Notes: a model not told the origin generated them from the letters alone. Positions 20,185-33,100 are shown, counted from the stretch's first letter. The stretch: DNA of 64,000 nt from Elusimicrobiota bacterium (GCA_003151975.1 PLZD01000031.1:6571-70570); one strand, 5' to 3'. Translations and numbers: made by a program.

Positions 20185-21425
20185 ACGTCCTCGTCCTGAA
20201 TTGCGGCTCGTCCTCGGTCAAGTTTCAGATCGTCGCGACGGATAAAGCCCGGATCGCCAAGGACGCCGACCGGCTCCTGGCCAAGGGCCTCATCGAGCGC
20301 GTCGGATCATTGGCGCTGATCACCTTCTCGGCTGAGGGCCGCGCCGTTTATAAAGACGAAGCGCCGCTCAAGGACGCCCGCGCGGCGATCGACCGCATCG
20401 CGCGCTGGATCGTGTCGGAGGAGGCGGGCATCCCCGGCGTGCGCTCGATGGCCGACATACACGCCGTCGGGCATCGCGTCGTGCACGGCGGCGAGCGCTT
20501 CAAGACCTCGATGGCCATCGACGACAAGGTCATCGCGGGAATCGAGGACTGCGTCGAATTGGCTCCCCTGCACAACCCGGCCAACCTCAAGGGCATCCGC
20601 GCAGCGCGCGAGCTCTTCGGCCGCGGCGTGCCCCAGATCGCCGTCTTCGATACCGCTTTTCATGCCACGATGCCCGAAACTTCGTATCTTTACGGAATTC
20701 CTTACCAGCTCTACCGCCGCCACAAAATTCGCCGCTACGGTTTTCACGGAACCTCGCATCGTTACGTCTCCTACCGCTACCGCACGATGCTCGGCCTTCC
20801 CAAAGAAAAGGTCGACATCATTACTTTGCATCTCGGCAACGGCTGCTCGGCCTGCGCGATCAAGAAAGGAGACTCGGTCAACACCTCGATGGGATTCACG
20901 CCGCTCGAGGGCCTGCTCATGGGCACGCGTTCGGGCGACCTCGACCCGTCGATCCTCGAGTATCTCGCGCTCAAGGAAGGCATGTCGCTCTCCGAGATCG
21001 ACTCGATGCTCAACAAGCAGAGCGGACTGCTCGGACTCTCAGGCTTGACCGGCGACATGCGCGACCTGCTCGAGGAGGAGGCCGAATCGCAAGACCGCCG
21101 CGCGCATTTGGCCATCGAGATCTTCTGCGCGCGCGTGCGCCGGTACATCGGCGGCTACTTCGCCGAGATGGGCGGCGCCGAGGCGTTGGTCTTCACGGGC
21201 GGCATCGGCGAGAACTCGCCGGAGATTCGCCGGCGCATCTGCGCGGGACTCGAGTGCCTCGGCTTGTCCGTCGACTCCCGCAAGAACGACTCGCTCAAAG
21301 GGACGCTCGGCGCGTTCAGCAAGCCTTCCTCGAAACTCAAGGCTTACGTCATTCCGACGGACGAAGAGCTTCTGATCGCGCGCGACGCCTACCGCGTCGT
21401 GTCCGGCATTCCCCTACCGCGCTAA
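20181..21425 (+). CDS. ackA: Acetate kinase
   Basis: Start at [17 protein letters not shown] (ATGA overlap). Also [14 protein letters not shown] and the GFHGTSH motifs. Confidence 0.95.
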
Positions 21426-22045
21426 TTGCCCGCGTGGTGGGCGACGTAGCCCGTCAGCCACGTCGTGATGTCGGAGAAACCCGGCGCGCCGTAACCGAAC
21501 GATTTCGCCTCGGCCGCCGCGTCGGCGACCGACTTGCCGTTGTAGAGCACTTGATACGCCGCGACGACCGCGCCGGTGCGGTCATGCCCCAGATGGCAGT
21601 GGACGAGCACGGGCTGCTTGGTCGAGTCCATGATGATGGCCAGGGCCGCGTCGACTTGGGCGTACGACGGCGAACTGTGGTTATCCATCAGCTGAGGGAT
21701 CAAGGTGATGCCATCCGCGGCCGCCCAATCCGGCTCGGCCGGATCGTCAGCGTTGAGTTTGAGTATCGTCTTGACGCCCTTGGCGGCGAGCTGAGAGACG
21801 CCCTGCTGGGTCGGCTGGCCCGAGCGATAGAGGATGCCGGTGACCTTCGCGAAGTTCGGCAGGCCTTGGCCCGAGCCAGCACCTGGATTCGGCGCCGGTG
21901 CGGGTCGCTTGGTCGCCGTCGCGGTGAATTTAAGGGGCGCTGCGGTGACCGAGCTCGCCCAGTTCGCTTCAGGCGTCTGCGCTCCAGCCCAGGACACGAG
22001 CCCGAAAAAGACCACCGGGGTAAGCCAGTTCTTCCAGTTCATCAT
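21422..22045 (-). CDS. Secreted protein-tyrosine / dual-specificity phosphatase-like protein
   Basis: Signal peptide plus the CX5R active-site loop [19 protein letters not shown]. Confidence 0.75.
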
Positions 22046-22236
22046 GCGCCCTCCTTTAATGACGCAGGGGAAGCCCGCGAGAGTCCGCGGCTTCCCCTGG
22101 TGGCTCCGGATTACGGTCCGGAGGTGGATGCTCCCCGACCAATCTCGGGGATTACAAGGTCATTTGGAGGTTAGCCCGCAAGGCCCATTGACAGCAGGGC
22201 CGTTAGGCCTATAGACGAATAGGACTTAAGACCTAC

Positions 22237-23676
22237 CTACTGCCCGCCGCCCAGGAAGACCGGATCCTGGTTGGTGTTGAACTCGCGGCGGGCGACGCGC
22301 GAGACTTCGGGCTTGAGGTAGTCGAAGGCCGCCTTGTAGTTCTGCGGGTGATCCTTGAGGCCCTTCAGGAAGAAGTAGGTGAAGAGGCCGTGGCCCTTGG
22401 TCTGGTAGGTGTTGCTGATCTCGTCGGCGCCGGCCGCGGCCAGCACGCTGATCTGCGCGGGGACCGAGGTCTGCACCATGTTGACCAGAGGACGCGCTCC
22501 GGAGGCGATGACCGAGCGGCCGCCCGCGCCCGAGAAGCAGGAGTCGAGCACGACGGTGACCTTGCCCGCCGGCAGTTTCGCGAGATAGGAATACATTCTT
22601 TGCACTGGATACGAGGTCTTGTCGAGGTAGGTCGGATCGCCGTCGTAGGGCACGAGATACGCGTCGCCTTTTGAGGGATCCGGCGCGCCGTGGCCGGAAT
22701 AATACACGAAGACCTCGTCGCCTTTCTCGACGCGGTTGGGCAGCCAGTTCTCGAAATATTTCTCGAAGTCGCTCTTGGTCGCCTGGCCGTCGACGAGGAC
22801 GGCGACGTTCTCCTCGGGAAAGCCCAGGGTCTGCGTCAGGTATTTGCCCACAAGACGCGCGTCGTTGGCGGCAAACTCCGCCGCGGGAAGACCGCCGCGG
22901 TAGTGCTCGATGCCGATCACGACGGCGTGCGCGCTTCTAGGCTTGCCGGTTGCGGCGGGAACGTCGTCGACATCGGAGCGCGGAGGAGGCGGCGGCTCTT
23001 TCTTGGCCACGGGACGAGGCGCGTCGTCGTACTGATCGTCGCGCGAGCGGCGCCGGCCGCGCCGGCGCGCCAGCTGCTCCTCGGAAGGCCGCATGTCGAC
23101 GGTGACCCGCTCGCCGGCCGCACCCACGACGCCGACCAAGGCGTCGGCGACTTCCTTGGCGGCCACGGGCATGCTCTTGCGCATCATGCCGTCGGCCGGA
23201 GACCCGGGCATGCCGCCCCAGGAGTTCTTCCAGTCGATGCCGCCGATCGAGCCGCCGGTCTGGCCGGTCGGATAGAAATTGATCTTCGTGTCGTCGAGCA
23301 GTTCCTCGCCGACGCCCATGATGTTGGGCACGGTTTTGGCCTGGACCGTCATGATGAGGTCGACGTTGCGCGCCGCCAGCTCCGTCAGGATGTCGGGCTC
23401 CTGCAAGGAATTGGCCTGGTCCGTGCTGAGCGGCCGGCCCGTGATGGCGTCGATGAGGGAGGAAGTGGCGTGCGTGTCGAGGACGTTGTAGCCGCGCGAG
23501 CTGAGCTCGGAGGCGATGGCGTCGGCGACCGCGGACTTGTTGGAGGTGGTGATGATCGCGCGGGGCCGCGTTTGCGGCTGGCGCGAGCCCTGGTTGATGA
23601 CGAGCCGCGAGCCTCCGCACGCGATGGATCCCGCCGCCGTCGCGGCGAGCAGCGAGAACCGCGCCAAGGTCTTCAA
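22237..23676 (-). CDS. Lipoprotein with a C-terminal caspase-like (peptidase C14) domain, paralog 1
   Basis: Lipobox LLAATAAGSIACGG. Caspase His/Cys dyad motifs YYSGHGAPD and VVLDSCFSGAGG. TTG start 1 nt after the paralog 2 stop. Confidence 0.85.
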   Translation of the reverse strand: MKTLARFSLLAATAAGSIACGGSRLVINQGSRQPQTRPRAIITTSNKSAVADAIASELSSRGYNVLDTHATSSLIDAITGRPLSTDQANSLQEPDILTELAARNVDLIMTVQAKTVPNIMGVGEELLDDTKINFYPTGQTGGSIGGIDWKNSWGGMPGSPADGMMRKSMPVAAKEVADALVGVVGAAGERVTVDMRPSEEQLARRRGRRRSRDDQYDDAPRPVAKKEPPPPPRSDVDDVPAATGKPRSAHAVVIGIEHYRGGLPAAEFAANDARLVGKYLTQTLGFPEENVAVLVDGQATKSDFEKYFENWLPNRVEKGDEVFVYYSGHGAPDPSKGDAYLVPYDGDPTYLDKTSYPVQRMYSYLAKLPAGKVTVVLDSCFSGAGGRSVIASGARPLVNMVQTSVPAQISVLAAAGADEISNTYQTKGHGLFTYFFLKGLKDHPQNYKAAFDYLKPEVSRVARREFNTNQDPVFLGGGQ

Positions 23677-23677
23677 G

Positions 23678-25171
23678 TTAGTTGCCTCCCTGCCACTCGG
23701 GATCCTGCTGTGTGTTCAGGTCGCGGCGCGCGACGCGCGAGACCTGGGGCTTGAGGTAGTCGAAGGCCGCCTTGAAATCGTCCGGGTGCTCCTTGAGGCC
23801 CTTGAGGAAGTAGTAGGTGAAGAGGCCGTGGCCCTTGGCCGCGTAGGTGTTGCTGATCTCGTCGGCGCCGGCCGCGGCCAGCACGCTGATCTTGGCCGGG
23901 ACCTTGGTCGGGACCATGTTGACGAGCGGGCGCGCGCCCGCGGCGATGACCGAGTGACCGCCCGCGCCGGAGAAGCACGAGTCGAGCACGACGGTGACCT
24001 TCGAGGCGGGGAGCTTGGCGAGCGCGGCGTAGAGCGCCTCGACGGGATAGCCCGTCTTGGCGATGTAGGTCGGGTCGCCGTCCCAGGGCACGAGATAAGC
24101 GTCGTGCGTTTGAATATTCGGTGCGCCATGACCCGAGAAATACACGAAAACTTCGTCGCCCTTCTCGACGCGGTTGGGCAGCCAGTTCTCGAAATCTTTC
24201 TCGAAGTCGCTCTTGCTCGCCTGGCCGTCGATGAGCAGCGCCACGTTCTCCTCGGGGAAGCCCAAGGTCTTGGTGACGTACTCGCGGACGAGCTTCGCGT
24301 CGTCGTCGGCGAATTCCGCCGCGGGCATACCGGCCTGCCGGTAGTGCGCGATGCCGATGATGACGGCGTGGCCATTTCGTTTGCCCGAGCCGGCGGGGAC
24401 TTCATCGACATCCGAGCGGATTTTGGCGGGAGCGGCGGGGGCAGCCGCGACGGCAGCGGCGGCGGGGCGCGTGCCGCGGCGGCGCGGGGCGCTGTCGGCG
24501 ACGTCGTTGGAGGCGGCGGCCGCGGCGTCCTTGATCTGGGGCAGGTCGCGGACGATGTCCTCGGCGAGCTTGGAGATGAGCGCCGCGATCGCGACGTCGG
24601 CGCCCTTCTGCATCATGTCGTTGGCGCCGCCAGGGAAGATCATCATGTGCGACATCTCGACCTTGAAATTCTCGGTGTAGCGCCGAATCTCGCGGCGGTC
24701 GGCGTCCTGGATAATGAGGTCGGCCTTGGCGTCGTACTTATCGCCGTACCAAATGATCGGCGAGGCCACGAAGAGCGTGAAGCCGGTCAAGAAGGCCTTG
24801 GCCGCCCACATCGGGTCGGCGACGTACTGAATGGCCATCTTCGCGGACATCGTCAGGTCGATGTCATCGGCCGAGCGGCCCATCGAGATCGGGAACTGGA
24901 CTTCCTTGAACGCACCGGTCTGGCGCAGGCCGTCGGCGATCTTGCCCGGAATGGACGGAGCGATCTCGCTGCTGGCGGTACCCGCGAATTGCGGGCTGAA
25001 CACCATGAAATTGCCGTTGACGGTCGAGCCCTCGGAGACGAGGCCGACGGTCAGATTCGTCGATTCCGACGCGTGCGGGATGGGAGGCGCCTGGTCGGGC
25101 TTGACGGAGGCGAAGCCGCAGCCGGAGATGAGAGTCGAGAGGGCGATGTACGCGGCGAGTGTTCTTTTCAT
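23678..25171 (-). CDS. Lipoprotein with a C-terminal caspase-like (peptidase C14) domain, paralog 2
   Basis: Start chosen at MKRTLAAYIALSTLISGCG (lipobox). YFSGHGAPN and VVLDSCFSGAGG motifs. Its N-terminal domain is unrelated to that of paralog 1. Confidence 0.85.
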   Translation of the reverse strand: MKRTLAAYIALSTLISGCGFASVKPDQAPPIPHASESTNLTVGLVSEGSTVNGNFMVFSPQFAGTASSEIAPSIPGKIADGLRQTGAFKEVQFPISMGRSADDIDLTMSAKMAIQYVADPMWAAKAFLTGFTLFVASPIIWYGDKYDAKADLIIQDADRREIRRYTENFKVEMSHMMIFPGGANDMMQKGADVAIAALISKLAEDIVRDLPQIKDAAAAASNDVADSAPRRRGTRPAAAAVAAAPAAPAKIRSDVDEVPAGSGKRNGHAVIIGIAHYRQAGMPAAEFADDDAKLVREYVTKTLGFPEENVALLIDGQASKSDFEKDFENWLPNRVEKGDEVFVYFSGHGAPNIQTHDAYLVPWDGDPTYIAKTGYPVEALYAALAKLPASKVTVVLDSCFSGAGGHSVIAAGARPLVNMVPTKVPAKISVLAAAGADEISNTYAAKGHGLFTYYFLKGLKEHPDDFKAAFDYLKPQVSRVARRDLNTQQDPEWQGGN

Positions 25172-25243
25172 GGTGATTAAGTTTACCACAATTATTTTCA
25201 CTATTCTCTGTCATTCGGAGCAATAATCGTGCCAAATCCCACC

Positions 25244-25272
25244 TTGACAATTAGCGGCTGCGATGGTACATT
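25244..25272 (+). promoter_or_regulatory. Promoter TTGACA-17 nt-TACATT (TGG-extended) upstream of the mlaC-like gene
   Basis: TTGACA at 25244-25249 and tggTACATT at 25264-25272. AAGGAG Shine-Dalgarno sequence at 25293-25298 before the ATG at 25304. Confidence 0.5.
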
Positions 25273-25303
25273 TCGTCTGTCCTTCATATCAGAGCAAGGA
25301 GCC

Positions 25304-25963
25304 ATGCCCATGCGCGAAATGATTCTCGCCGCCGCCGTCGTCCTCGCCTGCAGCCCCGTCCGCGCGGCCGACGAGCCCAGCGCCGACGCCAAGGAAGTTA
25401 AAACGCTCATCGCGACCGCCGTCGGCAGCACCATCGACGTCCTCAAGGACAAGAACAACGACAAAGACGCGCGCCGGAAGAAAGTCTACGCCCTTATTGA
25501 TCCCGTCGTCGACTGGCCGCTCATGGGCAAGCTCACGCTGGGGCGCGAGCACTGGCCGCAATTCGACGAGCCGCAGCGCAAGGAATTCCTCGAATCCTTC
25601 AGCCGCGTCATCCGCGACTCCGTCTACGACAAGGTCCAGGTTTACACCAACGAGACCGTAGATTTCGACGACGCGACTCCCGCCGACAAGGGGAAATACG
25701 CGCTGCTGATGCACGTCTTCTCGCAGGGCCAGAAGTTCAAGGCGCTCTTCAAGCTCCACCGAGAACAGGACGGAGCTTGGAAGGTCTACGATCTCGAGAT
25801 CGAGGGCATCAGCATGGTCAAGATTTACTCGGCGCAGTACGACCAGTTCCTCGCGAAGGGCACTCCCGACCAGCTGCTCGAGAAGCTCAAGGCCAAGGCG
25901 CTCGCGGTGCCCGATCAGTTCAAGGTCGTCGCGCGTCCCAAAAAAGTCGACGCGAAGCAGTAG
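25304..25963 (+). CDS. MlaC/Ttg2D-family periplasmic lipid-binding protein
   Basis: Signal peptide. IDPVVDWPLMGKLTLGREHWPQFDEPQRKEFLESFSRVIRDSVYDKV ... WKVYDLEIEGISMV matches the toluene-tolerance Ttg2D/MlaC pattern. Confidence 0.8.
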   Translation: MPMREMILAAAVVLACSPVRAADEPSADAKEVKTLIATAVGSTIDVLKDKNNDKDARRKKVYALIDPVVDWPLMGKLTLGREHWPQFDEPQRKEFLESFSRVIRDSVYDKVQVYTNETVDFDDATPADKGKYALLMHVFSQGQKFKALFKLHREQDGAWKVYDLEIEGISMVKIYSAQYDQFLAKGTPDQLLEKLKAKALAVPDQFKVVARPKKVDAKQ

Positions 25964-26038
25964 CCCGCGCTCAGCCGGCGGCCGCCAGAAATCGTCCCAG
26001 CCATTGACATTTTTTGGTTCCGGGGCTATACCTCGACC

Positions 26039-28588
26039 ATGTCTGCTCTTCGCGAGGCCTGGGGTCATTTCACGGACCGCGTCTGGCATCTCTACGACCG
26101 CGCGGTATTAAGGAACCCCAAGGCCTCGCTCGCGGCGCTCGGCGTGATCAGCCTCGTGTGCTGCTTCGGGCTCAAGGGCTTTCGCGCCGACGCCTCGGGC
26201 GATTCCCTGGTGCTCGAGCACGACGACGACGTCAAATACGCGCGGGCCGTCTCCGCGCGCTACGAGAACAACGACTTCGTCGTCATCGCCTACGAGCCGC
26301 CCGAAGGTCTCTTCGCCAAGCCCTCGCTCGACCGCCTGCGCGAAGTGCGCGACGCGCTCAGGAAAGTTCAAGGTGTTTCTTCGGTCGTTTCTATCCTCGA
26401 TGTCCCGCTGCTGCGCAACCCGCCGGGGCCGCTCAAGGATCTTCAGAAGAACATGAAGACGCTCGAGGACCCCAAGGCCGACTTGAAGCAGGCCATCGAG
26501 GAATTCAAGACGAGCCCGATCTACCAGAACCAGCTCGTCGGCGCGGACTTAAAATCCACCGCGATCCAAGTCAACTTCGCCGTCGACCCGAAGGACCAAG
26601 CCAACATCACGCGGCGCGCCGCCCTGCGCGAAAAGGACTACCGCAAGACAATCACGCTGGAAGATCGCGAAGAGCTCAAAGGGTTGGAGTCCTGGTACCG
26701 CTTATATAAGGACAAGGTCGCCGCGGTGCACCACGACGAGCTCCACGACATCCGCGCCATCATCGGCAAGTACCGCGGCCAGGCGCGCTTTCTGCTGGGC
26801 GGCATACCGATGATCATCGACGACATGATGACCTACATCCGCCACGACGTCGTCGTCTTCGGCATCGCGATCATGCTTTTCATCGCGTGCACGCTCTACA
26901 TCATCTACGGCCATATCCGTTGGGTCGTGCTGCCTTTGGCGAGCTGCGTGCTCTCGGTGATCCTCATGATGGGCGGGATGGGCTTGGCGCACTGGGATGT
27001 CACCGTGGTCTCGGCCAATTTCGTGACGCTCCAGCTGATCCTTACGATGGAGCTGGCGATCTACGTGATCTCGCGCTACCGCGAGCTCGTCTGGGCCAAG
27101 CCCCAAGCCGACAACCACGACCTCGTGCTCGAGACCGTACGCGAGGCTTGGGTGCCGGCGCTCTACATGAAGCTCACGACGATCGTCGGCTTTGAGTCGC
27201 TGATCTTCTGCGACATCTTGCCCGTCGTGCAGTTCGGCTGGATCATGACTTTGGGCGTGATCGTCTCGATGGTGCTCATCTACTGGCTCGTGCCGGCCGT
27301 GATGGTGCTATTCCCGAAATCGTCGCCGAAGGAAGAGCTCGAATGGGGCTCGCCCACGACCTTTCGCTTTGCGCGCTTCACGGTCAACCACGCCGCGATC
27401 ATCTACGCGCTGACGGTTCTGGTCTCGGTGGGGACGGCCGTGGGGATCAAGAGGCTCCAGGTCGAGAACAGCTTCATCGACTACTTCCGCAAGGACACCC
27501 CGATCTACAAAGGCATGCGCTTCATCGACGAATCTCTCGGCGGCACGACGCCCATCGAGATCATCTTGAAGCTCGGAAACGGGAAGCCGACGGCTGCGGC
27601 GGCGGAAGCCAAGGCTCCCGCCGACAAGTCCTTCGACGATTTCGACGAGTTCGAGAAGAAGGGCGCGGACGCGGAGAAATATTGGTACACCGCCGACCGC
27701 ATCGCGACCATCGAGAAGGTCCACGACTATCTCGAGAGCCTGCCCGAGACCGGCAAGGTCATGTCGCTGGCGACGCTCAGCAAGACGGCCGTCACGCTCA
27801 ACAATGGAAAGCCGCTCGACGACGTCAGCCTGACCTTCCTTTACAACTCCGCCGCGGGCTTCAAGGGCCTGCTGATCTCGCCCTACGTCTCGATCGAGAA
27901 CGACGAGGCGCGCATCACCGCGCGCATAAAGGATTCCAGCCCGTTCCTGCACCGCGCCGAACTCATCCGGCGCATCCGCCACGACCTCGTTTTCAAAGTC
28001 GGTCTCAAAGAAGAGGAGTTCCGGATCAGCGGCCTCATGCTGCTCTACAACAACATGCTGCAAAGCCTCTACACCTCGCAGATCAAGAGCATCGGCTTCT
28101 CGATCCTGGCGTTGTTCATCATGCTGCTGGTGCTGTTCCGTTCGGTCACGATCTCGCTGGTCGCGCTGCTGCCGCAGGTGCTGGCGTCTCTGAGCGTGCT
28201 GGGCGTGATGGGGCTGGGGGGAATCTCGCTCGACGTCATGACGATCACGATCGTCTCGATCGCGATGGGCATCGCCGTCAACAACACGATCCAATACGTC
28301 TACCGCTTTGAGCACGAGATCCAGCGCGACGGCAACTACGAGCGCGCCATGCACCACTGCCACCTGACCATCGGCAACCCGATCTTCTACACGTCGCTGA
28401 CGATCACGGTCGGCTTCGGGATTCTGGCCATTTCCAAGTTCGTGCCGACGATCATGTTCGGCCTGCTGATAGGGCTTGCGATGGTCGTGGCCCTGCTTTC
28501 GTCGCAGACTTTGCTGCCGGCCCTCATCCTTTTGACCAAGCCCTTTGGAGTCAAACGCAAGCCGTTGACGCGGGAAACGCCCCCTTGA
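26039..28588 (+). CDS. RND-superfamily exporter, MMPL / HpnN-like (two 6-TM bundles)
   Basis: 849 aa with two repeated blocks, each a large soluble loop followed by 5-6 TM helices (sterol-sensing-domain-like organisation). Confidence 0.8.
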   Translation: MSALREAWGHFTDRVWHLYDRAVLRNPKASLAALGVISLVCCFGLKGFRADASGDSLVLEHDDDVKYARAVSARYENNDFVVIAYEPPEGLFAKPSLDRLREVRDALRKVQGVSSVVSILDVPLLRNPPGPLKDLQKNMKTLEDPKADLKQAIEEFKTSPIYQNQLVGADLKSTAIQVNFAVDPKDQANITRRAALREKDYRKTITLEDREELKGLESWYRLYKDKVAAVHHDELHDIRAIIGKYRGQARFLLGGIPMIIDDMMTYIRHDVVVFGIAIMLFIACTLYIIYGHIRWVVLPLASCVLSVILMMGGMGLAHWDVTVVSANFVTLQLILTMELAIYVISRYRELVWAKPQADNHDLVLETVREAWVPALYMKLTTIVGFESLIFCDILPVVQFGWIMTLGVIVSMVLIYWLVPAVMVLFPKSSPKEELEWGSPTTFRFARFTVNHAAIIYALTVLVSVGTAVGIKRLQVENSFIDYFRKDTPIYKGMRFIDESLGGTTPIEIILKLGNGKPTAAAAEAKAPADKSFDDFDEFEKKGADAEKYWYTADRIATIEKVHDYLESLPETGKVMSLATLSKTAVTLNNGKPLDDVSLTFLYNSAAGFKGLLISPYVSIENDEARITARIKDSSPFLHRAELIRRIRHDLVFKVGLKEEEFRISGLMLLYNNMLQSLYTSQIKSIGFSILALFIMLLVLFRSVTISLVALLPQVLASLSVLGVMGLGGISLDVMTITIVSIAMGIAVNNTIQYVYRFEHEIQRDGNYERAMHHCHLTIGNPIFYTSLTITVGFGILAISKFVPTIMFGLLIGLAMVVALLSSQTLLPALILLTKPFGVKRKPLTRETPP

Positions 28589-28639
28589 TTTATTCCGGTT
28601 TGAGGGCTACAGTCAGACAGCGATGATGGGAGGAAAGAA

Positions 28640-29431
28640 ATGAAGAACATCCTCGGAGCGGCCGTTCTGGTTTCGCTGGCCGCGAGTTCCCTTCGCGCCG
28701 CGGAGCCGGCGAAGAAGCCGGACGAGAAAATGATCTCCATCGGAGCCAGCACCGAGTCCGAGTTCGAGGAGTTCGACGCCGAGTTCGGCAAGCAAAAGCA
28801 GGAGTCGCTGCGGGTCTCGGATCCCTTGCGCGGCTTCAACCGCGCGATGTTCTGGTTCAACGACAAGTTCTATTTCTACTTCGCCAAGCCCATCGCCAAA
28901 GGCTACGGCTTCATCATCCCCGAACCCGCGCGCGTATCCATCAACCGCGCCTTCACTAACTCGACTTTCGCCGTGCGGTTCGTCAACGCGGGCCTGCAGC
29001 TGCGCTTCAAGGGCGCGGGCCACGAGCTCGAGCGCTTTCTCGTCAACACCACGCTCGGCATCGGCGGGCTCTTCGATCCCGCGGACAAATGGTTCCACAT
29101 CAAGGCCTGCGAGGCCGACTTCGGCCAGACTTTCGGCCGCTGGGGCATCGGCCACGGCCCGCCGCTGGTCCTGCCCATTCTCGGCCAGACCAACGTCCGC
29201 GACGGCATCGGCCTGGTGCCGAATTTTCTCGGCGACCCGCCCTACTGGTTCCTCCCTTACTGGTCGTATGTCGGCTACACGGCCGGCGTGAAGATGAACT
29301 ACGTCTCCCTGCACATCGGCGACTACGAGAAGGTCAAGAAGGACTCGCTCGATCCCTACACCTTCATCCGCGACGCGCATCTGCAGTACCGCGAGAAGAA
29401 GGTCCAGGAAGCCAAGGAAAACAAGGACTAG
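28640..29431 (+). CDS. mlaA: MlaA/VacJ-family outer-membrane lipoprotein
   Basis: DPLRGFNRAMFWFNDKFY ... NTTLGIGGLFDPA ... DFGQTFGRWGIGHGPPLVLPILG matches the VacJ signature. Confidence 0.85.
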   Translation: MKNILGAAVLVSLAASSLRAAEPAKKPDEKMISIGASTESEFEEFDAEFGKQKQESLRVSDPLRGFNRAMFWFNDKFYFYFAKPIAKGYGFIIPEPARVSINRAFTNSTFAVRFVNAGLQLRFKGAGHELERFLVNTTLGIGGLFDPADKWFHIKACEADFGQTFGRWGIGHGPPLVLPILGQTNVRDGIGLVPNFLGDPPYWFLPYWSYVGYTAGVKMNYVSLHIGDYEKVKKDSLDPYTFIRDAHLQYREKKVQEAKENKD

Positions 29432-29493
29432 GCTTTACCGTCTTTTTTACCGCCGGAAACAAATCGCGGGACATCGGGCGCTATACTCCCAAC

Positions 29494-30264
29494 ATGGAGT
29501 CCCGCAAAGTGCTTGTCCCGGCACTTCTCGCCTTCGCCTCGGCCGGCTTGTTCATGCTGGTCCTAACCTCCAAGGAGAAGGCGCTAAGCCAATCCTTCGA
29601 GACGGGCCAAGTCCTGGTCGCGACCGTCGACATCCCCGAGCGCACCGTGCTCAAGCCCGACATGTTCGAGGCGATGTCCGTGCCGCGCAAGTTCATGCAG
29701 CAGGACGCCTTCGAGGTGCGCACGCCCTCGGACCTCAAGCAGATCTCGAACCTCGTCGCACGCGTGCGCATACCCAAAGGGAACCAGGTCACCGAATCGT
29801 CGCTGATCTCGCTCTCGCCCGACGCGGGCCTCAGCGTCAAGATTCCGCCGGGCTATCGCGGCGCGGTTCTGCCGATAGACCCGGGCATGAAGTCGCTCAT
29901 CAAGCCCGGCGACCGCGTGGATGTCCTGCTGACTTTCGACGCGATGATCGAAGGCTCGCGCGATAAAGCGACGGTCACGATTCTCCAGAACGTGCTCGTC
30001 GTCGCCGTGGGCAACGACATGGGCCAGGGTCAGAGCGCCGGACAGCGCAAGTCGATGAACGAGAAGGACGACCGATCCTCGGCGCTTAACGACAAGGCTC
30101 TGATTTCTCTCGCCCTCAATCCCAATGAGCTGCAATACCTGGCGCTCATGCAGCAGAAGGGAAACACTTCGATCGGCGTGCGCGGCCTCGGCGACAACGA
30201 GATGCACCCGATTCCGATCGCCGCCATGCCGTATCTCCTCAACGGCAACGCCAGAAAGCCTTAA
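29494..30264 (+). CDS. CpaB-like protein (N-terminal TM anchor, SAF domain, RcpC-type domain)
   Basis: Start at MESRKVLVPALLAFASAGLF. SAF-like GQVLVATVDIPERTVLKPDMF, then GYRGAVLPID...IKPGDRVDVLLTF...ILQNVLVVAVGN, typical of Flp-pilus CpaB. Confidence 0.7.
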   Translation: MESRKVLVPALLAFASAGLFMLVLTSKEKALSQSFETGQVLVATVDIPERTVLKPDMFEAMSVPRKFMQQDAFEVRTPSDLKQISNLVARVRIPKGNQVTESSLISLSPDAGLSVKIPPGYRGAVLPIDPGMKSLIKPGDRVDVLLTFDAMIEGSRDKATVTILQNVLVVAVGNDMGQGQSAGQRKSMNEKDDRSSALNDKALISLALNPNELQYLALMQQKGNTSIGVRGLGDNEMHPIPIAAMPYLLNGNARKP

Positions 30265-30587
30265 GCGGCCGCGTTCTTCAGCGTATCGCCGGCCTTGACG
30301 TCGTCGCGTTCAATACCGGTCAGAAGCACGCCGACGTTCTCGCCCGCCGCCGCGTGGTCGCGGTTCTCGCGCGCCAATTCGATTCCCGTCACGCGGCAGA
30401 CCTTCTCGGCGCCCGCGCCCGAGCGCACGACGGCTCGGACGCCGACTTTGATGACGCCGCTGGCGACCTTGCCGGTCACGACGACGCCGCGGCCCGAGAT
30501 ATGAAAAATGTCCTCGATGGTCATCGCGAACGAATCGCCGATCCGTCCCGGATCCTCGCCGCCGAACATCTTGTCGAATAATCCCAT
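30261..30587 (-). CDS. Small stand-alone EF-Tu domain-II-like beta-barrel protein (second copy of this fold in the window)
   Basis: Start at MGLFDKMFGG. FHISGRGVVVTGKVASGVIKVG ... AAAGENVGVLLTGIERDDVKAGDTL is very similar to EF-Tu domain 2. Confidence 0.6.
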   Translation of the reverse strand: MGLFDKMFGGEDPGRIGDSFAMTIEDIFHISGRGVVVTGKVASGVIKVGVRAVVRSGAGAEKVCRVTGIELARENRDHAAAGENVGVLLTGIERDDVKAGDTLKNAAA

Positions 30588-30627
30588 CGCACTCTGAGTG
30601 TGCCCCCGGAACCCGTCCGCGTCAAGG

Positions 30628-30633
30628 TATAAT
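30628..30633 (+). promoter_or_regulatory. Consensus -10 box TATAAT, 7 nt upstream of the rsmG ATG (leaderless candidate)
   Basis: aaggTATAATctcagcaATG read directly. Confidence 0.45.
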
Positions 30634-30640
30634 CTCAGCA

Positions 30641-31297
30641 ATGGAAGAAGCCTTCGCCATCCTTGAGACCTTCGCGGGCGAGCGCGGCGTCGAGCTCACG
30701 GCGCACAAGCGGAAGCTCATCGAAGAATACATCGGCGCCTTGCTCGAGCAGAACAAGACCGTCAATCTGACGGCCGAGGCAGACGCCTCGAGCATCCTCC
30801 TGCGCCACATCGCCGACGGCCTGGCCGCCATTCCCGTCTTAAAAAAGCACACCAACTCCGAGCACCCGCGCATCTGCGACGTCGGCTCGGGCGGGGGCTT
30901 CATCGGCATGTCGATCAAGATTTTCTGGCCCGAGGCCGAGGTCACGCTCATGGAAGCGCTGGACCGCAAGTTCAAGTTCCTCAACATGGCGGCCGCGCGC
31001 ACGGGGCTCAAAGGCCTGCGCGTGCTCAAGAAAAAAGCCGGCGTGGACCGCTTGAACTCGCTCGAGACCGGTTTCGATGCCGTCGTCGCGCGCGCGCTGG
31101 CACCCCTGCCCGAGGCGCTCAAGACCTGCCTGCCGCTGCTCAAGGAGGGGGGCGTCTTCGTCGACTACGAGTCCGATCGCGCGCGCGCCGACCCGAAGAC
31201 CCTAGCCGAACTCTCGGCAAGATTGGTAGAGTCTTTCCCATACCGATTACCCGGAGAGGACAAGGATCGGCATTTGGCCGTTTTCGGCCGCCAGTAG
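30641..31297 (+). CDS. rsmG: 16S rRNA (guanine527-N7)-methyltransferase RsmG (GidB)
   Basis: NKTVNLTA...LLRHIADGL...ICDVGSGGGFIGMSIKI motifs. Confidence 0.9.
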   Translation: MEEAFAILETFAGERGVELTAHKRKLIEEYIGALLEQNKTVNLTAEADASSILLRHIADGLAAIPVLKKHTNSEHPRICDVGSGGGFIGMSIKIFWPEAEVTLMEALDRKFKFLNMAAARTGLKGLRVLKKKAGVDRLNSLETGFDAVVARALAPLPEALKTCLPLLKEGGVFVDYESDRARADPKTLAELSARLVESFPYRLPGEDKDRHLAVFGRQ

Positions 31298-31307
31298 GAG
31301 GATCGCC

Positions 31308-31841
31308 ATGCAGATGCTCAACCGCTACTTCGTCCCCTTCGCGCTGATCCTGATCCTGTCCGCGCTGTGGTTCAACGTCGAGAACCCTTCCGACTGGCGC
31401 CACTGGGATTCGACCTACAAAGAGTCGCTGATCATCCTCGCGATCTCAATGGCGGTCAACTGGTACCTCTCGGTCAACACCTACCGCTACATCCATTGGG
31501 CCAAACAGATCAAGATACTCGAGGTCTGGCTCTACTTCCTTTTGGCGGCCGCGCTGTTCTGGCTTCTTGGACCCTCATGGGGGCCGATGTGGCTGCTCTT
31601 CGTGATGTCGCCGGTGGCCGCGGCGTTGTTCACCAACCGCTGGCACACCTTAGGATCCGCTCTGACCTCCGCGGGAACCATGCTACTGATCTACTACAAG
31701 CGCGGGCTCTTCCACGAGGGCATCGGCCCGGCGGAGGGCATGGCCTGCGTGCACGCCTCGTTTATCGTCGTCTTCGCGCTCTTCGTCTACGGGCTGGAGC
31801 AGACGGCTCTGCGCCTGAGAGACGTGGCACTGCGTCGCTAG
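31308..31841 (+). CDS. Integral membrane protein, function unknown
   Basis: 177 aa with 5 hydrophobic segments. AGGAGG Shine-Dalgarno sequence upstream. Confidence 0.55.
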   Translation: MQMLNRYFVPFALILILSALWFNVENPSDWRHWDSTYKESLIILAISMAVNWYLSVNTYRYIHWAKQIKILEVWLYFLLAAALFWLLGPSWGPMWLLFVMSPVAAALFTNRWHTLGSALTSAGTMLLIYYKRGLFHEGIGPAEGMACVHASFIVVFALFVYGLEQTALRLRDVALRR

Positions 31842-31900: not shown

Positions 31901-33100
31901 ATGGATGCCCTGTTCCGTGTCCGGGTCCTGATTTGGGTTCTCGTCCTGTCGCTTTGGGGCGTGATGGTCTACCAATTCCTAGGCGAGGAGGATAAGCCCG
32001 ACACCTCCGCCCAGATGCAGCCCGTGACCAATCCTTATAAGGACATGGCGCCCGTCGCCGAACCGCCCGAGCGCGCCGGCAAGGGCACGGCCCAGCCGAC
32101 GCCGTCCGAGATCGAGGCCCAGGCGCGCCTGCTCGCGAGCCAAACGCCGCCGCCTGACATAGCACCCGGGCAAGATCAGCCCATCGAGAACCCCCCGACC
32201 TTGGCCGGCGGGCCGGGAGCCGAGAACCGGCCCTCGTCGCTCGACTACATCCGGCCGATGACGCCCGAGGAAGCGCCGCCTCCGCCCGCGCACAAGACGC
32301 GCCGCATGCGCCGCGAGGAGCGCGTCTCGCGCAACAGAAGCGACGCCGACCTGCGCATCCCGCCGGGCTTCGTCAAGAACGTCACGCGCCACTTCGTCAT
32401 CTACTCCGAGGGCGACGCGGCCTCCGACCAGTTCGTGGGGCTCGCGGAGAACATCCACGGCAACCTCATGCTCGACCTGGCCTCGTTCTCGCCGTGGGCC
32501 AGCGACGAGAAGGTCACGATCTTCCTGTTCCGCAGCCAGGATACTTACCGCGAGGTCACGGGCCGACCCGCGTGGTCGGGCGGGGCAAGCTCGGTCCCTA
32601 AGCGCCGGCTCTACATCTACGAGAGCAACGAGCTGCCGGGCATCTTGGCGCACGAGCTCTGCCACATCTATTACGACGGCTTCTATCTCGACGGCCATGC
32701 CGACCCGCTATGGCTCTCGGAGGGCATGGCGACCCTGATCCAGGTCGAGCGCGGTCTGGCCGCGCCCGAGTGGCTCAAGGAGAACATGCGCATACTCGAG
32801 CGCGGCGGCGGCTACTCGATCGAGGAACTGATGAACGTCGCCAGCATGGAGGGCGCCTCCGACGACAAGGTGCGGCTCTGGTACACGCAGTCCTACAGCA
32901 TCGTGCGCTTCATGATCCGCACCCAGTACAAGTCGAGCTTCTACAAATTCTCCGAGTATCTGCGCGAGGGCAAGGACCCGACCCAAGCGCTCTACCGCGC
33001 CTACGGCATGCCCTACAACCGTCTGAAGGCGCTCGACTACGCCTGGCGGTACGATCTGGCCAACAGCACTCTCTCGAGCCTTTCGCGAGGCGCTAAGTGA
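31901..33100 (+). CDS. Membrane-anchored protein with an HExxH (MA-clan peptidase-like) domain
   Basis: N-terminal TM segment, a Pro-rich linker, then LAHELCHIYYDG (HExxH) and downstream WLSEGMA. Confidence 0.55.
   Translation: MDALFRVRVLIWVLVLSLWGVMVYQFLGEEDKPDTSAQMQPVTNPYKDMAPVAEPPERAGKGTAQPTPSEIEAQARLLASQTPPPDIAPGQDQPIENPPTLAGGPGAENRPSSLDYIRPMTPEEAPPPPAHKTRRMRREERVSRNRSDADLRIPPGFVKNVTRHFVIYSEGDAASDQFVGLAENIHGNLMLDLASFSPWASDEKVTIFLFRSQDTYREVTGRPAWSGGASSVPKRRLYIYESNELPGILAHELCHIYYDGFYLDGHADPLWLSEGMATLIQVERGLAAPEWLKENMRILERGGGYSIEELMNVASMEGASDDKVRLWYTQSYSIVRFMIRTQYKSSFYKFSEYLREGKDPTQALYRAYGMPYNRLKALDYAWRYDLANSTLSSLSRGAK

Follow-up and report, generated by a model that had tools for sequence, protein, structure and literature searches.

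A conserved MlaC, RND and MlaA gene module in Elusimicrobiota and other phyla, and its proposed role in lipid trafficking

The DNA considered here is a 64-kb segment of 61–67% GC from an uncultured Elusimicrobiota bacterium (GCA_003151975.1, PLZD01000031.1:6571-70570), which we call the window and by which we mean the whole stretch that was analysed. Four plus-strand genes lie across positions 25310-30264 and encode, in this order, a MlaC-like protein, an RND transporter, an MlaA-family protein and a CpaB protein (Table 1). This gene content had been proposed in an earlier interpretation made from the DNA alone (the sequence-only reading), and it is borne out by Pfam and NCBIfam matches and by coding-type GC content at third codon positions (GC3) of 0.83–0.89. 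Intergenic gaps measure 75 nucleotides (nt) between mlaC and the RND gene, 51 nt between the RND gene and mlaA, and 62 nt between mlaA and cpaB. The first three genes recur side by side in at least seven phyla, and the region 25310-29431 probably moves lipids between the two membranes of the cell, whereas cpaB appears to be an independent neighbour. Among the open reading frames (ORFs) of the window that were scanned with Pfam, a few small ones being left out, there is no mlaD, mlaE or mlaF, no tad, and no shc or hpn gene, which agrees with what had been said earlier about the absence of mlaDEF from the window and of tad/cpa pilus genes near cpaB.

Table 1. Features of the mlaC-RND-mlaA-cpaB region, in window coordinates (aa, amino acids).
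Feature	Position	Strand	Basis
Sigma-70-like promoter TTGACA-N17-TACATT, before mlaC	25244-25272	+	Promoter scan
MlaC-like periplasmic lipid carrier, 217 aa	25310-25963 (alternative start 25304)	+	Pfam MlaC 1e-34
Weaker promoter-like element TTGACA-N17-TATACC	26004-26032	+	Read from sequence
RND/MMPL-type inner-membrane transporter, 849 aa	26039-28588	+	Pfam MMPL 4e-29
MlaA-family outer-membrane protein, 263 aa	28640-29431	+	Pfam MlaA 1e-60
Conserved cpaB 5' region	29433-29493	+	Comparison with loci L088 and L089
CpaB (Flp/Tad pilus assembly protein), 256 aa	29494-30264	+	Pfam RcpC 2e-16, SAF 4e-4; TIGR03177

The genomic setting of the RND gene was surveyed in one genome per GTDB species by a pattern scan with an RND profile. 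At least 562 RND orthologs were confirmed from the 600 matches examined in these species representatives, and the best 80 loci (39–60% identity) were kept, whose six-frame ORFs were searched for partners with hidden Markov models (HMMs) derived from the proteins of the window together with their first matches. Genes for MlaA and MlaC both stand directly beside the RND gene on the same strand in 47 of the best 80 loci, arranged as MlaA-MlaC-RND in 26 and as MlaC-RND-MlaA in 21. Partial triads occur in five loci, some of them at contig ends, and the RND gene is alone in 28, from SAR11, Marinobacter, Saccharospirillum, a Desulfobacterales subgroup and a metagenome-assembled genome (MAG) of Fibrobacteraceae. 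The full triad is found in Elusimicrobiota, Desulfobacterota, Nitrospirota, SAR324, Lambdaproteobacteria, Lentisphaerae, Planctomycetota (Scalindua, Brocadiaceae, Pirellulales and Phycisphaerae) and Campylobacterota (Arcobacter, locus L071, and Sulfurimonadaceae, locus L062), that is, in at least seven phyla, and the mlaC and RND genes often overlap or lie 1 nt apart across them. Both gene orders are present within Elusimicrobiota, so the adjacency has survived rearrangement, a classic signature of a functional unit. Chance juxtaposition of unrelated neighbours thus has a practically negligible probability for the triad, where nothing speaks for it and the 47 adjacent triads in two orders refute it; it does hold for cpaB. 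The proposal that MlaC, RND and MlaA work together, with the RND protein in the inner-membrane position, is supported by the same adjacency, and of the wider neighbourhood proposed earlier, MlaC+RND+MlaA with or without CpaB, the triad is syntenic across phyla while CpaB is not part of it.

Additional partners were sought by all-against-all BLASTP clustering of approximately 3,700 neighbouring ORFs around the best 80 RND loci, in which no fourth conserved family was present in more than 11 loci. The clusters recovered were shadow ORFs within the RND gene and the families dnaB, rplI, purF, alr, guaB, SDR and ABC ATPase, and a fourth conserved partner was rejected because the recurrent neighbour families are either such shadow ORFs or housekeeping genes. 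No MlaE- or MlaD-like family was found to recur near the module in this clustering. The conserved unit is exactly three genes, MlaC, RND and MlaA. Among the lone RND orthologs, which are 39–42% identical to the window protein, those of SAR11 (L066, L067, L069, L070, L072, L076 and L077) sit beside rplI-dnaB and purF, and others are those of Saccharospirillum and Marinobacter (L065, L073, L078 and L079).

Closer relatives of the window locus are found among Elusimicrobia, where the best protein matches of the RND transporter are 70–81% identical and all derive from MAGs. In a relative with a 78% identical RND protein the order is MlaC-RND-MlaA followed by a DedA/VTT gene; at 74% identity, a divergent gene for a squalene/phytoene synthase (SQS_PSY) precedes MlaA-MlaC-RND, and a PLD-like gene follows; at 81% identity, MlaC-RND is followed by convergent genes. 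The module flanks in L081 (GCA_016194705.1) and L083 (GCA_016212795.1) hold genes for DedA/VTT, PLD/cardiolipin-synthase-like, fatty-acid hydroxylase and SQS_PSY proteins, and also a polyketide synthase resembling polyunsaturated-fatty-acid synthases with an NMO enoyl reductase; one PLD-like protein of 1049 aa is encoded directly after the RND gene. These Elusimicrobiota neighbours fit lipid metabolism weakly, and they do not identify a substrate.

The MlaC-like protein matches Pfam MlaC with 120 bits, over the gathering score, and its earlier assignment as a MlaC-type periplasmic carrier is sustained by this HMM search. It scores under the curated cut-offs of both HpnM (TIGR03481, 57.5 versus 160.1) and the E. 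coli MlaC equivalog (34.7 versus 195), HpnM being its best-scoring NCBIfam model though still below cut-off. Its nearest solved structures are canonical MlaC proteins (E 3e-8). The protein begins with a cleavable signal peptide of the signal peptidase I type (...VRA/ADEP), and the same kind of signal peptide, free of a lipobox, is seen in 45 of 47 orthologs.

The MlaA-family protein is also well recognized by Pfam (205 bits, above the gathering score) and by the PDB entry of MlaA 5nuq (E 8e-22), and it likewise stays under the E. coli equivalog cut-off (96.8 versus 375). Its ATG is preceded by a GGGAGG Shine-Dalgarno sequence, and its signal peptide, MKNILGAAVLVSLAASSLRA/AEP, contains no cysteine. 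Of the earlier description as an outer-membrane lipoprotein MlaA/VacJ, the family assignment therefore stands and the lipoprotein part does not, since a signal peptide without the lipobox cysteine indicates that the window protein is no lipoprotein. Among the MlaA orthologs of the module, 17 of 41 have a lipobox.

Regarding the RND transporter, a PDB sequence search gave a marginal match, confined to one transmembrane (TM) bundle of HpnN (E 3e-11), which is its nearest solved structure by sequence, and for this reason the fold was placed by structure prediction and Foldseek. The AlphaFold2 single-chain model, built from an alignment of 59 orthologs, has a mean predicted local distance difference test score (pLDDT) of 82.6 and a predicted template modelling score (pTM) of 0.76. 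It contains 12 TM helices in the arrangement TM1, periplasmic domain 1, TM2-6, TM7, periplasmic domain 2 and TM8-12, and periplasmic domain 1, roughly 200 residues in size, includes a long helical hairpin (residues 184-245). Foldseek aligns the model with MmpL4/5 and MmpL3 at TM-scores of 0.64–0.78, normalised by target length, and with HpnN at about 0.6, and other matches are NPC1, Patched and Dispatched, with identities of 11–16%. Judged by its predicted fold, the protein would be of the monomeric lipid-handling RND type. The earlier assignment to MMPL-type RND proteins holds on the Pfam match and this consistent fold.

The MmpL3, MmpL4 and MmpL5 proteins, as the best structural matches, share with the model the 12-TM monomer with two periplasmic domains after TM1 and TM7 and the TM4/TM10 relay, and they export lipids to a periplasmic acceptor, as is proposed for the window protein. 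They differ from it in sequence (13–16% identity), in carrying a coiled coil in domain 2 (MmpL4/5) where the window protein has its hairpin in domain 1, and in their partners, which are MmpS or AcpM rather than MlaC and MlaA. The TM4/TM10 pair carries the proton relay in MmpL3-type transporters. At the corresponding positions most RND orthologs have [S/A]338 and H342 in TM4 and [D/E]748, [D/N]749 and H752 in TM10, while the subclade of the window protein (8 sequences, at least 71% identical) has E338 and Y342 in TM4 and N748, N749 and Q752 in TM10. A few orthologs hold both the TM4 and the TM10 acids and are intermediates in this respect, and at least one TM4/TM10 carboxylate is present in 58 of the 59 aligned sequences. 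The alignment suggests that the putative proton-relay carboxylate moved from TM10 to TM4 in the Elusimicrobiota subclade, with the coupled changes H342Y and H752Q, and such a relocation with one acid retained would fit a functional proton-coupled transporter.

A closely related system has been proposed for hopanoids. A route of HpnN, HpnM and HpnS was proposed for Proteobacteria from microsynteny and AlphaFold 3 (2025 preprint, PMC12324291), and it has the same architecture of an RND protein (HpnN structures 5khn and 6wu0), a MlaC-like periplasmic protein and an MlaA-like outer-membrane protein. By analogy, the RND transporter of the window could pump hopanoids or squalene-derived lipids to its MlaC-like and MlaA-like partners, a reading encouraged by HpnM as the best NCBIfam model of the MlaC-like protein, by weak matches of the RND protein to HpnN models and its nearest solved structure, and by the SQS_PSY gene divergent from the module in the relative at 74% identity. 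However, the HpnN models are missed by a wide margin (TIGR03480, 96.9 versus 751.85; NF052374, 64.6 versus 1100), so that HpnN and HpnM scores together lie 3- to 17-fold under the curated cut-offs; the fold is related, but sequence similarity is limited to the one TM bundle, and the structural match to MmpL4/5 and MmpL3 equals or beats that to HpnN. There are no hopanoid genes nearby, as far as the scanned ORFs of the 64-kb window go, and the same RND family and triad extend to Campylobacterota, from which squalene-hopene cyclase is reported to be absent. We regard hopanoid or isoprenoid-lipid export as quite improbable, and membership of the HpnN type, which the sequence-only reading had assigned, was rejected on the curated cut-offs and on these phyletic grounds.

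Upstream of the module, the promoter-like motif at 25244 has 10 of 12 consensus matches plus an extended TG in the scan, and both hexamers and their spacing are kept 5' of mlaC in the relatives L081 and L085. The module had been described as having one promoter with TTGACA at 25244; the motif is confirmed and conserved in two relatives, and its singleness is insecure, as further promoter-like boxes are present before the RND gene (TTGACA at 26004 and TATACC at 26027) and before cpaB (TATACT at 29482). The element at 26004 ends 6 nt before the RND start codon, within the mlaC-RND spacer, and fails the scan rule at position 6 of the second hexamer. In relatives the mlaC-RND spacing is just 1–10 nt, and the element is specific to this genome, where it may represent an internal promoter or give rise to a leaderless RND transcript.

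The fourth gene was correctly described as encoding a CpaB-like protein with SAF and RcpC domains and an N-terminal membrane anchor: the protein passes TIGR03177 (105.1 bits versus a cut-off of 71), both domains are found by Pfam, and the N-terminus is hydrophobic (VLVPALLAFASAGLFMLVL, read from the sequence). Its start is corrected from the ORF start 29089 to 29494; the 405 nt in between, which overlap mlaA, show a non-coding GC3, and 29494 is also the start given by an independent gene call. The sequence-only reading had further suggested a four-component system in which this orphan CpaB is a periplasm-spanning adaptor or bridge between the RND protein and MlaA. Such a role could be imagined from the position of cpaB directly after mlaA on the same strand, with no terminator found between them, from the lack of other tad genes among the scanned window ORFs, and from the periplasmic rings that CpaB/RcpC proteins form (PDB 9gzr). 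We consider it very improbable, and the comparative genomics has already largely refuted it. Co-occurrence was searched for with phmmer and then with an HMM of 120 CpaB homologs against six-frame ORFs of RND-centred loci, and not one of the 86 other loci gave a CpaB match at a threshold as loose as E<=10. In the RND relatives at 81%, 78% and 74% identity the module is followed by different genes and not by cpaB. In the sister genome GCA_016194705.1 the module lies on contig JACQAZ010000021 and a 77% identical CpaB ortholog on JACQAZ010000026, where cpaB (L088) is directly followed by rsmG, a 179-aa gene and a Peptidase_MA_2 gene. The window has the same order downstream of cpaB, with rsmG at 30641, a 177-aa gene at 31308 and the peptidase gene at 31901, and this shared order shows that cpaB travels with the rsmG block rather than with the module.

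The 5' region of cpaB points in the same direction. About 60 nt before the gene are conserved in three genomes (the window, L088 and L089) whatever the gene upstream, which differs among them and is divergent in L088 and L089. The conserved blocks are CTTTACCGTCTTTTTTAC, GAAACAAA and the -10-like TATACT, which stands 6 nt ahead of the ATG. Their conservation suggests a promoter belonging to cpaB itself, with a spacing compatible with a leaderless transcript. The regions compared were 29433-30264 of the window, 7940-8768 of L088 and 7940-8774 of L089. CpaB homologs at 62–65% identity sit in canonical tad loci in all three cases examined, in the order pilin, TadE, CpaB, secretin, CpaE/CpaF fusion, TadB, TadC and TPR, while cpaB is detached from tad genes here and in two relatives (71–77% identity). 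The window gene, unlike the usual Tad cpaB, has no tad genes around it, and in view of the tad-locus homologs it is a genuine Tad CpaB that became detached in this lineage. It appears to adjoin mlaA through a rearrangement in this lineage and to be no part of the module. CpaB as a module component, and with it the adaptor or bridge, was rejected on this combined evidence of loci, contigs, 5' region and homologs, and the effort that the adaptor idea would have required can be spared. In the tad loci of relatives, the secretin is very short (237–246 aa) and the CpaE/CpaF ATPase is fused (743–776 aa).

A counterpart of the three-gene module has recently been described from Campylobacter jejuni, in which mlaA (Cj1371) and mlaC (Cj1372) are co-transcribed with the RND gene Cj1373, and for which anterograde transport driven by the proton-motive force, with a lipid/H+ RND antiporter loading MlaC, was proposed in a study that characterises MlaC only (2026 preprint, bioRxiv 10.64898/2026.08.28.747810). 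C. jejuni MlaC binds phospholipids and lysophospholipids and is independent of the E. coli MlaFEDB pathway, and the organism carries both an RND-linked and an MlaFEDB-type system (bioRxiv 10.64898/2026.08.28.747810). As in the window, the MlaA-, MlaC- and RND-family genes are adjacent on one strand, and the mechanism we consider is the one proposed there, function in C. jejuni being likewise a proposal. The Arcobacter L071 and Sulfurimonadaceae L062 RND proteins, encoded in adjacent MlaA-MlaC-RND triads, serve here as proxies for Cj1373 and are 42–43% identical to the window protein over residues 18-840. The window differs from the C. jejuni operon in its phylum and in the order MlaC-RND-MlaA, in the 75 nt, including a promoter-like box, that separate mlaC from the RND gene where the operon has overlapping stop and start codons, in an MlaA without a lipobox, and in the apparent move of the proton-relay carboxylate to TM4.

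Taking these observations together, we favour, with moderate confidence, a three-gene lipid-trafficking module that carries out anterograde transport driven by the proton-motive force, with cpaB standing apart. The domain identities, the predicted compartments from signal peptides, the RND fold and the adjacency across phyla were observed, and from them a sequence of steps may be proposed. The RND transporter would use the proton gradient, through the membrane-embedded TM4/TM10 carboxylate, to pull an amphipathic lipid out of the inner membrane, a glycerophospholipid or a lysophospholipid being the likeliest candidate. It would then pass the lipid to the soluble MlaC in the periplasm, which in turn would carry it to MlaA for delivery to the outer membrane. 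The physical hand-over, the direction and the substrate are thus presumed. To our knowledge, the RND transporters characterised so far export their substrates from the inner membrane or the periplasm outward, and for that reason export is the favoured direction. A phospholipid or lysophospholipid is favoured as substrate because the nearest solved MlaC relatives bind phospholipids, because C. jejuni MlaC, from an equivalent operon, binds both kinds of lipid, and because the module occurs in Campylobacterota, where squalene-hopene cyclase is reported to be missing.

Several points weigh against this interpretation. The 28 loci of the best 80 without adjacent MlaA or MlaC imply that the RND protein can work unlinked or with partners encoded elsewhere. 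All members of the RND family are experimentally uncharacterised, and direction and substrate are argued by analogy alone, from what RND exporters generally do and from the lipid binding of C. jejuni MlaC. The canonical Mla pathway is generally held to be retrograde. The window RND protein was compared with Campylobacterota orthologs and not with the Cj1373 sequence itself. Finally, as no terminator separates mlaA from cpaB, read-through co-transcription of the two is possible, although given the comparative evidence it is irrelevant to the function of cpaB.

The direction in particular invites another explanation, namely that the module is a retrograde or a repair and detoxification unit, in which mislocalised lipids or hydrophobic toxins are picked up by MlaA and MlaC and are then either inserted into the inner membrane or expelled by the RND transporter, or else that MlaA and MlaC are the partners of an MlaFED complex whose genes lie elsewhere and share no more than co-regulation with the pump. 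Canonical MlaA and MlaC act in the retrograde direction, cultured Elusimicrobia encode MlaDEF, so that this genome may also code for an ABC partner, and C. jejuni has both systems. We nevertheless judge the explanation unlikely: characterised RND transporters export outward, the tight adjacency of mlaC and the RND gene across phyla argues for a stoichiometric partnership rather than co-regulation, no MlaE- or MlaD-like family is recurrent near the module, and C. jejuni MlaC does not depend on the MlaFEDB pathway of E. coli.

Compared with the canonical Mla system of E. coli, the proposed anterograde module shares the MlaA and MlaC domain families and a periplasmic shuttle between an inner-membrane machine and the outer membrane. 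It differs in that the inner-membrane partner encoded alongside is a pump of the RND type and not the ABC/MCE complex MlaFEDB, in that its MlaA and MlaC fall far under the E. coli equivalog cut-offs and its MlaA is not a lipoprotein, and in its likely direction, which we infer to be opposite. A survey of 1083 genomes described MlaA, MlaB and MlaC as sparse and mostly proteobacterial, and scored cultured Elusimicrobia as MlaDEF-positive and MlaA/C-negative, and a review of MlaA makes no mention of a link with RND proteins. Since cultured Elusimicrobia have MlaDEF and C. jejuni has both systems, the RND-linked and MlaFEDB systems are at least as likely to coexist in this genome as the one is to replace MlaFEDB, the possibility raised in the sequence-only reading. 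The idea of an RND transporter working with MlaC and MlaA is already published as a hypothesis in two preprints, and a specialist aware of them will not find the locus surprising. We found no earlier account of how widely the triad is distributed among phyla while keeping a single RND family, one that differs from HpnN and lacks a solved structure. The triad is neither a Campylobacter curiosity nor a hopanoid-specific device, and it is also present in phyla that the survey scored as largely MlaA/MlaC-negative.

The delivery of phospholipids to the outer membrane is a long-standing problem, which for E. coli is at present answered by AsmA-like bridges. If true, a route over RND, MlaC and MlaA that draws on the proton gradient would add a second anterograde phospholipid pathway with a different mechanism. 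A wider generalization, which we put forward tentatively and consider possible though rather doubtful, is that beyond the classical Proteobacteria MlaA and MlaC chiefly serve a widespread MmpL-like RND family rather than MlaFEDB, as an anterograde phospholipid route driven by the proton-motive force and running parallel to AsmA-like bridges in many diderm phyla. The phyla concerned would be Elusimicrobiota, Planctomycetota including the anammox bacteria, Desulfobacterota, Nitrospirota, SAR324 and Campylobacterota. This breadth offers several tractable hosts together with clear residues for mutation, which makes a second pathway directly testable.

The rest of the window around the four genes is of a housekeeping character, with rnpA-yidC-jag-mnmE, mnmG, rsmG and the dcw cell-wall cluster, and it also holds two caspase-domain genes. 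Between cpaB and rsmG lies a small ORF (30261-30641, minus strand, 108–126 aa) that consists of an EF-Tu domain-2-like barrel alone and overlaps the cpaB stop by 4 nt; none is present at the equivalent position of the sister genome (L088). On the other side, the two caspase-domain (Peptidase_C14) proteins are tandem paralogs of 479 and 507 aa (22237-23676 and 23678-25201, both minus strand), transcribed divergently from mlaC, with hydrophobic N-termini that resemble those of signal peptides or lipoproteins. Next to them, the Rfam 2dG-II purine-riboswitch aptamer RF03165 is matched over its full length (22092-22162, minus strand; 84.3 bits versus a gathering score of 60) within the 5' leader of a minus-strand gene at 21422-22045 for a dual-specificity/tyrosine-phosphatase-like protein of 207 aa, an unusual downstream gene for a riboswitch of the purine clan.

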